The position numbers were made by a program. A stretch of 64,000 nt of DNA, taken from assembly GCF_024298765.1 (NCBI RefSeq), contig NZ_CP101211.1; one strand, written 5' to 3'. Positions within the stretch are counted from its first letter, which is position 1, and every line of letters starts with the position of its first letter. The stretch comes from Escherichia coli (GTDB taxonomy: Bacteria; Pseudomonadota; Gammaproteobacteria; Enterobacterales; Enterobacteriaceae). This document shows, in pieces, positions 36,001 through 39,000 of this stretch.

Positions 36001-39000
36001 ATGAAGAGCGTAGTTGATGTTCATCAACCCCATCAGCGATAAACTGACCGATTTTTGTTTCAAGCCGCTGCATTGCCTCGTAAAGCTTGGCATCCGCATT
36101 ATTTTTAAGAAACCTCAGTATATAATCAGCAATAATTTGGACGGGAGTGAACTTATACATTATGTATCCTTAAGACGTTGTGTTAAATGATTCAAAAAAA
36201 TTTATAACCAGACGTAAATTATTATACATAAGTAAGCACTTTAGCTAACAAGCTGGAGGAGTGAATTTCGGTTAGCAACTATATTTTAGAAGCTGATTGC
36301 TGAATAGACAAAGCCCGGCTTACCGGGCATTCATTTAATTAGATGCTAGAAATCTGACCCGTCGTCTGACTTTTATTCCAGGCAGAGTTAGGAACTAATA
36401 ATGATGGCCTGGTCAGTTTGAGGAAGCCGGTTTCCTCTGATAAATGCAGGGTGGTTTAAACGAGAAGAAGAAATGGTCATCGCCAGAAATGTCTCTTCAC
36501 GCGAACGCAGAAATTCCCCCCATGAATAGGTTTCCCATACGTCGTGAGAAAGGTCGGATTCCTTTATGTACCGGGATTGCATTGTTGGCTCAAAATCGAC
36601 AGGGGCTAAACTGTCATAGGATGGATGAACACGGTACCCCAATCCCTCCTCCGTCTGATGGTATGCATGTGCCAAAAGGACATCGTGGGAGACCAGGTCA
36701 TAGTCGTTGTCCTGAACGAGCGTTTTTACGGTATGACTAATTTCCCCAAAGCCGTCTATTTCCCAGAGCGTTATCATTGTGAACTCAGCTAAAGTTCGTG
36801 GGCTCTTTACCAGAAAGCCATTTAATGCTCGTCGCCCCTTCAGCATGCCAACGTGGTAGGTCTTGTTGGGATAGGGTTTCATTGCCACCAGCGAATCAGC
36901 TTTAAGCTCAAGTGACAATTCAGGGACAGACACGGACATGAGAGTACACTTGTTTTTCATATGGTGAAGAATACGTGGCACAAGATGCAGATACATCATT
37001 TTCTCCTTTTATGGATATAACTGGCAGATCCTCAGCAGCATCAAAATAGTTAATAGACTTTTTTAATTGGTTAACCACTGTTGATTGACTTGTTTTATGT
37101 CTCTGAGAAATTATTCGTTTTGTTTCTGTTCGTTATACTGCTCAAACCAGAAGACGACCGGTTTTACTACAATATGAAGCAAACCAAAACGTTCTGCGGT
37201 ACGGAAATTCACGCTATATGCGCGAGCCCGTTCAACCTGTTTGGTAATTTCATTTCTCATTCCTTCAACACTAAAAGCTCCTTTAAAAAGGTTGCAGGGA
37301 GCGCATGATGGAAATAAGTTTTCTATTGCATGCAGTTCAGGGTGCATAACCTTACCCGTACTTCGGGCAACATGAGTTACGCCGCTGCCGACCGGGGCTC
37401 TCACCAGTTCAAAGTCGCGTCGAACAGGCTCAACATGATCGGCATGCCACCCTTTTTCAGGAAGCTTGCAACCACAATAGGCACAACGCCCCCCAAATTT
37501 CATTCGCAGCTCAGCTCGCTGTATTTTAGAGATCTTATTTTTAGGTTTTGAGAACCTACCATCAGGTGATTCCGCTTTGGATAACTTTGCTGAGGGCTCA
37601 GGTAACTCAACTAAATTCCCGTTGATATTTATCACCTTGACCATATCATTTTCCGCCTTTACTAATCTCACGGGCACAGGAGCTGGCTTAAGTAACCGCT
37701 GAAGTTAACAGCCACTGACTGCCTCTACCCAGACCTTCTGTTTATACTCAATAGGCCACCCCTCTTTATCTGCCCGGATGACGCAATCATTTACCGTGGT
37801 GCGTGACCGGATACGAACATCAAGCGGAAGCGAATCGTTATCCACACGAGCCTGTGCCTCATTTAAAATGCGTAAAAACATCTCTTTGGTCATTCAGATA
37901 CCCCCTCAACTTTGCGAATTTTGATCAGATGAGGGCGATTCAGTTTACAAAGTTGTTCTGTCGCTTCATCAATCGAATTGAACCGATGAGCCTCTTCGAT
38001 ATTTAAAGTCCAGTATTTCGCTTTCCCTTCTCCCAGATCGGACTCAAAATAATTTCGCTTTACATCCATTTTTTTAGGCCTGCCATTTATCTTGACGACA
38101 TTATGTCTGTCATCAAAAAGAAATTCGTCCCCCTCAAAAGTGATTAATACAAATGGCCCCTCAGGCTTGGAAGTCCGGGGACTTCCCATTTTCAAAGTCA
38201 TACTTCAGCCTCTCGATAGAACTCATGAAACCTCAAATTAAAATGGACTCACACCACACTGATTCAGTATTCCTCCTGAACCCCATTAGGCTCTGTTGTG
38301 ATTTCATATTTAATACCGCCAGGTGCTCCCACAGCGTCCGCGACCGACTCACACAGCAGCGAGAGATCGTTGAGGGTCATTGGGTGTTCAATGTCCAGCG
38401 TGAAGAGTTTCCCGGCTTGCTTGGCGGCTGTCTTGTCAGCATGTTCAGCATTAAAAAGGTATACGGTGTGTTTTTCCTGAGCGGGGGTATTTTGATTTTG
38501 CATTGATGATCCTTTTGTTTAGTTCCCCGATTCCGGGGGTGAGTGAATTAATTTAAATTTATATTTGTCTGGTTTAATTAGAACGTTTCCAGGCTATGCG
38601 TAAACAGGTAATGCAAAGGCTGTATCAACAGGATTAAAGTTACTTTTCTGGATGCAGCAACGCTTGGACATGATGTCCACATTACATCACGATCAAAGCT
38701 AAGTTTTTTTTGTATAACCCCTTCATTTTCGTGTGTTTCGCGTTTCAGACGCTTATACGACCTGCCTGACCATCCTCATCAGAAGGCGGTTTAACAGTCC
38801 TTTCGCTGTCGGGCGATTGCTATCGACATAGTAAAAACCTGTTTTGGTCGTACCGTGAGCACTGCTCAGCACCCTCAGTTCCCAGATAACGTCACGGATA
38901 ACGCCGCCATTTTCTGGCTTAAGGCATTCAGATAAATGGCGCATGAAACGAGCTCTTACGGCACGGTAATAGCGGAACTCCTCTGGCTGGTTAGTATTTT

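Follow-up and report, generated by a model that had tools for sequence, protein, structure and literature searches.

The window analyzed here, a 64,000-nucleotide stretch of Escherichia coli DNA, is IncHI2 plasmid backbone (45.8% GC). Between the Tra1 relaxase operon and the gene for an Ig-like protein, it carries an array of ∼40 small co-directional genes spanning ∼35 kb. An orphan methyltransferase gene and toxin-antitoxin genes are also found in this array, and its gene families are partly common to phage early regions. The locus under study lies on the minus strand and comprises a 79-aa gene that is a member of the array (38264..38503), a 103-aa gene (37890..38201; phrog_30913), a 62-aa gene (37705..37893), a gene for an HNH endonuclease of 177 aa (37111..37644; WP_000241454.1), and a DUF6012 gene (36388..36999). 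The DUF6012 gene is the last one before a terminator-like GC hairpin, recognized 3' of it on the same strand by pattern match (GCCCGG-TAAG-CCGGGC with a T-rich tail; 36313..36328). RefSeq labels the products of the 103-aa and 62-aa genes as hypothetical proteins and that of the nuclease gene as "HNH endonuclease signature motif containing protein." None of the genes stands out in GC content (44.9% for the HNH gene versus 45.8% for the window), and an Rfam scan of all 64,000 nucleotides returned no match.

The HNH region is 100% identical to that of the plasmids listed as matches, such as pSTM6-275, which is near-collinear with the window apart from IS differences. The 2.3-kb stretch around the HNH gene matched 988 plasmids in PLSDB, with identities of at least 99% for more than half of them (575/988). 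All 988 are of large size and come from Enterobacterales, and those inspected were typed as IncHI2A/MOBH/MPF_F.

A first-pass annotation of this DNA had described three tightly packed minus-strand genes of 103, 62, and 188 aa, forming an operon with the HNH gene at its end. The three open reading frames are present (38201..37890, 37893..37705, and 37677/37644..37111), and all are conserved, real genes. The tight packing holds for the first junction, where the 103-aa and 62-aa genes share a 4-bp ATGA overlap and the 62-aa gene is thus apparently translationally coupled to the 103-aa gene. It does not hold for the second, where the gap measures 60 bp rather than <30 bp because the HNH gene starts at ATG 37644 and encodes 177 aa. 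The longer product of 188 aa would begin at GTG 37677, which lacks a Shine-Dalgarno sequence, while both the orthologues and PGAP start at ATG 37644. The latter codon is preceded by a weak Shine-Dalgarno sequence (aaggcgga), and in an alignment of 30 homologues, all full-length N-extended orthologues start at this position. On the upstream side, a 62-bp gap separates the 79-aa gene from the 103-aa gene.

The placement of the HNH gene at the end of an operon was not borne out either. The DUF6012 gene follows it after 111 bp, and the sole terminator-like hairpin on that strand comes after DUF6012. A scan for minus-strand promoter-like sites from 38750 to 37100 found none. Moreover, promoter and terminator site counts in the region did not exceed the shuffle expectation; thus, the limits of any operon here are inferential. 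Taken together with its surroundings, the 103-aa/62-aa/HNH trio is an arbitrary slice of the ∼35-kb array.

The Pfam HNH model (PF01844) matches the 177-aa protein at 22.2 to 22.5 bits, just over the gathering score of 21.4, with residues 54 to 76 covered by the match. All 30 aligned homologues, which share 51 to 79% identity, pass or approach the threshold of this model. The first half of the motif, supported by both the alignment and Pfam, consists of C54-x2-C57 and H67-A-D69-H70 (37435..37485, minus strand). The second half, evident from the alignment, consists of N109, C114-x2-C117, N118, and K121 (37282..37320, minus strand) and makes the protein an H-N-N variant; it aligns to the N..PAC..CN..K segment of the Gme HNH nickase (PDB entry 4H9D). 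Eight residues (H67, A68, D69, H70, N109, C114, C117, and N118) are invariant among the 30 homologues, and the zinc ligands C54 and C57 are kept in at least 90% of them. The first-pass annotation had held that missing catalytic residues would undo its nuclease reading and had proposed checking the alignment for a His-Asn-His triad; the catalytic residues proved invariant. The alignment thereby shows a predicted active site (D69-H70, N109, and N118) and a putative Cys4 zinc site (C54, C57, C114, and C117) that are both intact. H70 would serve as the general base, and the structural model shows a protein predicted to fold as a beta-beta-alpha-metal HNH domain.

Two further segments lie outside the motif. 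At the N terminus, an extension of ∼36 residues (37537..37644, minus strand) is delimited by the alignment, the AF2 model, and the tree. The 80 aa originally reported for this extension is an overestimate, because the ∼140-aa core of the family, PHROG 2118 (E value of 1.7e-55), and the homologues from phages and plasmids begin to align at approximately residue 37. The extension is predicted by AF2 (pLDDT, 52 to 78) to form a beta-hairpin (residues 2 to 5 and 11 to 14) followed by a Lys/Pro-rich linker, and the 140-aa phage and IncF forms do not possess it. In a distance tree, the N-extended forms (from IncHI2/HI1, IncHI1B, and a few others) lie apart from the short phage and IncF forms. One N-extended form occurs in an integrase-adjacent prophage-like region; thus, the extension also exists outside IncHI. 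At the C terminus, a near-invariant helical block (ERARAYSVNFRTAERFG...PVVFWFE.Y; 37135..37239, minus strand) was defined from the alignment and the AF2 model. Q136, R139, S144, R152, F153, G154, P162, and F165 of this block are invariant among the 30 homologues, and AF2 models it as helices (pLDDT, 89 to 96). The conservation of the C-terminal block, and of the extension in the extended forms, suggests a specific interaction surface.

No accessory DNA-binding domain (such as NUMOD, AP2, or IENR) was detected in the HNH protein, and a PDB sequence search found no relevant match, and hence no solved structure related by sequence. A profile search of the PDB yielded no more than a weak match to the Gme HNH protein and a spurious one to a PsbY repeat, and Foldseek against the PDB returned only weak matches to the HNH domain of Cas9. 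Literature searches with the WP accession, with IncHI2 and HNH, and for tra-operon HNH genes found no functional report on this HNH protein or its close homologues.

Within the IncHI lineage, the HNH gene is widespread and well conserved. It was found in 978 of the 1,125 repHI2-positive PLSDB records, with at least 80% of the gene present in 836 (836/1,125), and it also occurs in IncHI1 and IncHI1B plasmids. The HNH proteins of IncHI1 and IncHI2 are 79% identical (pN of 0.15 versus a saturated pS of 0.77), whereas their neighbors are less conserved: 76% for the DndC-like protein, 66% for the 103-aa protein, and 60% for the DUF6012 protein. The HNH gene has therefore descended together with the IncHI backbone, and purifying selection has acted on it. 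In the one case of HNH absence examined, the gene had been disrupted by IS26. In at least one repHI2 plasmid, pKA04-2, IS26 and a class 1 integron truncate the gene at approximately codon 134, and the plasmid is still typed as conjugative. Because IS26 disrupts the HNH gene in a sub-lineage that still types as conjugative, the gene is dispensable.

The first-pass annotation had suggested that the HNH protein may act as a defense or anti-defense effector or as a toxin together with its small neighbors. Such a multi-gene module, in which the 103-aa and/or 62-aa proteins would be functional or immunity partners, would account for the tight spacing and for the translational coupling of the two small genes. 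It would also sit well in an array that holds an orphan methyltransferase and toxin-antitoxin genes and whose families are common to phage early regions, which are rich in anti-defense genes. However, the comparative data run against it, as the partners are not co-conserved. The 62-aa family is very small, as a search of 1.84 billion proteins yielded 10 representatives, including a spurious repeat protein, although the family shows a conserved pattern. The 62-aa gene is present in 982 plasmid records, all of them IncHI2 plasmids except for four weak matches in Pseudomonas; it is absent from IncHI1, so that among IncHI plasmids it is confined to IncHI2. A distant homologue was located in the early region of a prophage, under Q-antiterminator control, where its neighbors are unrelated and neither the 103-aa nor the HNH family was found beside it.

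The 103-aa family is larger (46 clusters, with 29 invariant columns) and likewise occurs apart from the HNH gene. In Mu-like prophages it immediately precedes gemA/mor, and in the early region of another prophage its neighbors are Ead/Ea22, RdgC, Lar, Dam, and DinI; neither setting has an HNH gene. Conversely, IncHI1B/IncFIB Klebsiella plasmids carry the HNH gene (61% identity) with different neighbors and neither small gene. The 103-aa gene does adjoin the HNH gene in IncHI1 as well as in IncHI2 (69% identity by BLASTP and 66% by global alignment), and this retained adjacency may reflect a lineage-specific partnership of the two. Both small genes are intact beside the IS26-truncated HNH gene, and no co-occurrence was seen outside the synteny of the backbone.

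Database searches were no kinder to a module. HMM and structure searches, which the first-pass annotation had proposed for all three proteins, gave the Pfam match for the HNH protein, while the 62-aa and 103-aa proteins matched no Pfam, NCBIfam, or PADLOC family and no antitoxin, immunity, or known anti-defense family; the structural model of the 103-aa protein is of low confidence and matched no fold. With no antitoxin family detected and no co-occurrence with the HNH gene outside IncHI1/IncHI2 synteny, the genes do not resemble a type II toxin-antitoxin pair. A match to a characterized colicin or homing-endonuclease family, named at the outset as another ground for abandoning the proposal, was not found: the HNH protein has only 177 aa, and none of the six proteins scanned gave a Pfam or NCBIfam match to colicin/pyocin DNases or their immunity proteins. 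PADLOC reported a motif-level match to PtuB (E value of ∼1e-4), which might be read in favor of a module of the Septu or retron kind. We rejected this candidate, as the scores lie far below the cutoffs (17 bits versus 150 for NF041761 and 21.5 bits versus 52 for TIGR02646), and no PtuA ATPase, retron reverse transcriptase, or msr-msd was found near the HNH gene. No defense-system model matched the HNH protein significantly.

The DUF6012 gene was also considered as a partner of the HNH gene. It was rejected because its family occurs without the HNH gene in IncX4 and IncHI1B plasmids; in IncX4, it adjoins genes for a topoisomerase, Hha, and H-NS. The comparative distribution thus shows the 103-aa and 62-aa genes as, to all appearances, independent neighbors in a long co-directional array rather than members of a conserved module. 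On this comparative evidence, the trio is not a three-gene system, and we regard a multi-gene defense, anti-defense, or toxin-immunity module as highly unlikely. Of the earlier proposal, the nuclease itself stands, with its active site intact, and its union with two upstream small proteins into one functional unit does not.

A homologue search with the HNH protein retrieved 980 proteins, and tblastn placed the family in 2,706 plasmid records and 170 phage records. In phages, the gene stands alone at several kinds of site: a P22-like phage carries it in its ea/recombination region, Dhillonvirus-like phages have homologues (56% identity) adjoining the large terminase gene, and phage eiAU has one between the DNA polymerase and helicase genes. 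In phage Sasha and a Klebsiella phage, the HNH gene lies beside methyltransferase/ParB-like genes. Among plasmids, IncF members (pSLT and R100-like) carry the gene wedged between trbC and traN in the tra operon, and other large MOBH plasmids also carry the family. PHROG 2118 is an accessory family shared by the phages, prophages, and conjugative plasmids of enterobacteria, among which it circulates.

This pattern raises the possibility of a free-standing, homing-type selfish endonuclease, which would cut loci lacking the HNH gene, be copied into them by recombinational repair, and persist without benefit to the plasmid. Such behavior would explain the presence/absence polymorphism at the IncF site, where trbC and traN flank the HNH gene in pSLT and R100-like plasmids and overlap directly in the F plasmid, which has no HNH gene there. 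It would also fit the phage copies wedged between replication genes, a position typical of free-standing homing endonuclease genes, as well as the dispensability of the gene in IncHI2. The HNH protein of pSLT is 89% identical to g341c gp24, the product of a P22-like phage gene, which points to recent exchange between phage and plasmid, again in keeping with homing. Yet these near-identical proteins occupy unrelated loci (the ea region versus the tra operon) and show no locus-specific divergence, which argues against locus-specific targeting, and the NUMOD, AP2, or IENR domains sought in the IncHI protein were not detected. Furthermore, most repHI2 plasmids carry the IncHI copy, it also occurs in IncHI1 and IncHI1B, and it has remained under strong purifying selection, whereas a homing gene that has become fixed should decay. 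The homing reading offered by the first-pass annotation therefore finds some backing when the whole family is considered but none in the fixed IncHI copy, for which we consider it unlikely.

The same neighborhoods could instead point to a structure-specific or partner-recruited nuclease that processes the DNA of its element, by analogy with debranching by T4 endonuclease VII or with the terminase-associated HNH proteins of cos phages, and that would have been co-opted for conjugative DNA. This idea would suit the homologues that adjoin the large terminase gene of Dhillonvirus-like phages and those within recombination and replication modules or the tra operon. It would also suit a recurrent similarity to Endonuclease_7, seen in 23 of the 30 members (best E value of 0.004), and PHROG families labeled "endonuclease VII" match the HNH protein at E values of 5e-10 and 1e-7. 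Nevertheless, the Endonuclease_7 score of 13.8 bits falls below the Pfam threshold of 23.6, and plasmids that type as conjugative can do without the HNH gene. HK97 gp74, a terminase-associated protein of cos phages, is a small HNH protein too, and certain homologues of the IncHI protein are found in the analogous place, beside the large terminase gene. As a relative, gp74 was rejected, since it shows no sequence or profile similarity to the IncHI protein and the plasmid has no terminase or packaging machinery. With gp74 homology absent and only some phage homologues beside a large terminase gene, the IncHI protein does not group with the terminase-associated HNH proteins, and we assign a very low probability to a dedicated DNA-processing nuclease of this type.

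The reading that we favor, and that we consider probable, is a stand-alone Cys4-zinc HNH endonuclease of the PHROG 2118 accessory family, which would give the plasmid a non-essential DNA-transaction function, rather than an effector of a three-gene system. The HNH protein alone would nick or cut DNA in a divalent-metal-dependent manner and with little sequence specificity. Low specificity is expected because near-identical proteins occur in unrelated loci and no separate DNA-recognition domain was recognized. The enzyme could then process replication, recombination, or transfer intermediates of its own element, or it could damage the DNA of rivals. It would not act as the effector in a defense, anti-defense, or toxin system made up of the three genes. 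Two observations count against this reading: it gives no part to the conserved C-terminal block and N-terminal extension, and the 103-aa gene adjoins the HNH gene in both IncHI1 and IncHI2.

A more elaborate version, which we consider quite unlikely, takes the N-extended IncHI protein to be a domesticated nuclease that docks onto a conserved host factor or plasmid partner via its C-terminal block or N-terminal hairpin. Expressed from a one-directional array resembling a phage early region, it would act in plasmid establishment or in conflict between elements, for instance, as an enzyme that cleaves the DNA of a rival plasmid, a phage, or the host or that processes DNA after transfer. With regard to establishment, no coverage of MOBH or IncHI transfer polarity was found in the literature on leading regions.

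Among the main vehicles of mcr-1 and carbapenemase genes are the IncHI2 plasmids, whose small backbone genes in the ∼35-kb array are mostly without known function. Recognizing one of them as an intact, selected, and dispensable stand-alone nuclease that is common to phages narrows the experiments that are worthwhile and removes the three-gene system as a tempting but unsupported reading. The HNH gene itself was already annotated, and it belongs to a known superfamily and to an existing, uncharacterized phage/plasmid subfamily. It is a real but ordinary feature, and the result alone leaves current understanding unchanged.

Among HNH proteins of known structure, the Gme HNH nicking endonuclease (PDB entry 4H9D) and the HNH protein of phage GVE2 (PDB entry 5H0O) resemble the IncHI protein at the motif level only (profile E value of 0.47). 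Neither has a counterpart to the N-terminal extension of the IncHI protein, to its long insertion between DH and N, or to its helical block at the C terminus. Closer relatives are the phage members of PHROG 2118, such as g341c gp24, gene 1 of Escherichia phage Bas77, and gp20 of Edwardsiella phage eiAU, for which our searches found no functional characterization. Their core is 55 to 64% identical to that of the IncHI protein, and they share with it the Cys4 site, the DH..N..N residues, and the C-terminal helical block. The IncHI protein differs from them in its additional ∼36-aa N terminus, its distinct DH-to-N loop, its plasmid location, and its gene neighborhood. Finally, the HNH proteins of the IncF tra operon (PSLT094.1N of pSLT, WP_001229397, and its R100-like counterpart, WP_001229309) are 57 to 60% identical to the IncHI protein and are likewise encoded on conjugative enterobacterial plasmids. 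They are of the short, 139- to 140-aa form and reside within the tra operon, whereas the IncHI form has the longer history in its lineage and is encoded away from the tra genes.

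The HNH gene (37111-37644, minus strand) lies within a run of approximately 40 co-directional small genes on the minus strand (window ~18400-53000), mapped via the pSTM6-275 record (~202.8-238 kb) and located downstream of the Tra1 relaxase operon. Members of this array include an orphan DNA methyltransferase, RelE/ParE, and Hok, and homologues of several array genes occur in phage early regions (the Mu semi-essential region and the P22 ea region). The array looks like an establishment-type array.

Also encoded nearby is a 794-aa DndC-like PP-loop protein with an SGGKDS motif (38753-41137, minus strand). 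This protein matched the PADLOC DndC model with an E value of 4e-38 and scored 117 bits against the NCBIfam DndC model, under the 290-bit cutoff; no dndA, dndB, dndD, or dndE was found near the gene. The protein is retained in IncHI1 (76% amino-acid identity; dN/dS, ~0.05). This orphan is a candidate DNA-modification enzyme of the plasmid backbone.

The HNH gene itself is not always intact. In an IncHI2 sub-lineage, it is interrupted at approximately codon 134 by IS26 followed by a class 1 integron (3001-4166 in NZ_CP139029.1, equivalent to window ~37240), leaving a 149-aa product. Less than 80% of the gene is present in 142 of the 978 HNH-positive records. Antisense to the HNH start is a promoter-like site, TTGATA-16-TATCAT (10/12; 37622-37649, plus strand). 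Because the count of such sites in the region was not above shuffle expectation, this site is probably due to chance.

Two differences separate the window from pSTM6-275. An IS1-like element (34006-34774) is inserted in the DUF957 gene, and the alignments on either side of it share 9 bp, as would fit a target-site duplication. In addition, pSTM6-275 lacks a 1.9-kb backbone segment (53077-54997) that carries two minus-strand open reading frames (145 and 174 aa); IS26 occupies this position in that plasmid.

An HNH gene also occurs within the IncF tra operon. F has no gene at the trbC/traN junction; Salmonella virulence plasmids of the pSLT type have the order trbC-HNH-traN, with an HNH protein 89% identical to gp24 of Salmonella phage g341c (compared records L008, 5995-6414, and L004, 3995-4417). 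This similarity suggests a recent exchange between phage and plasmid that brought the gene into the tra operon.
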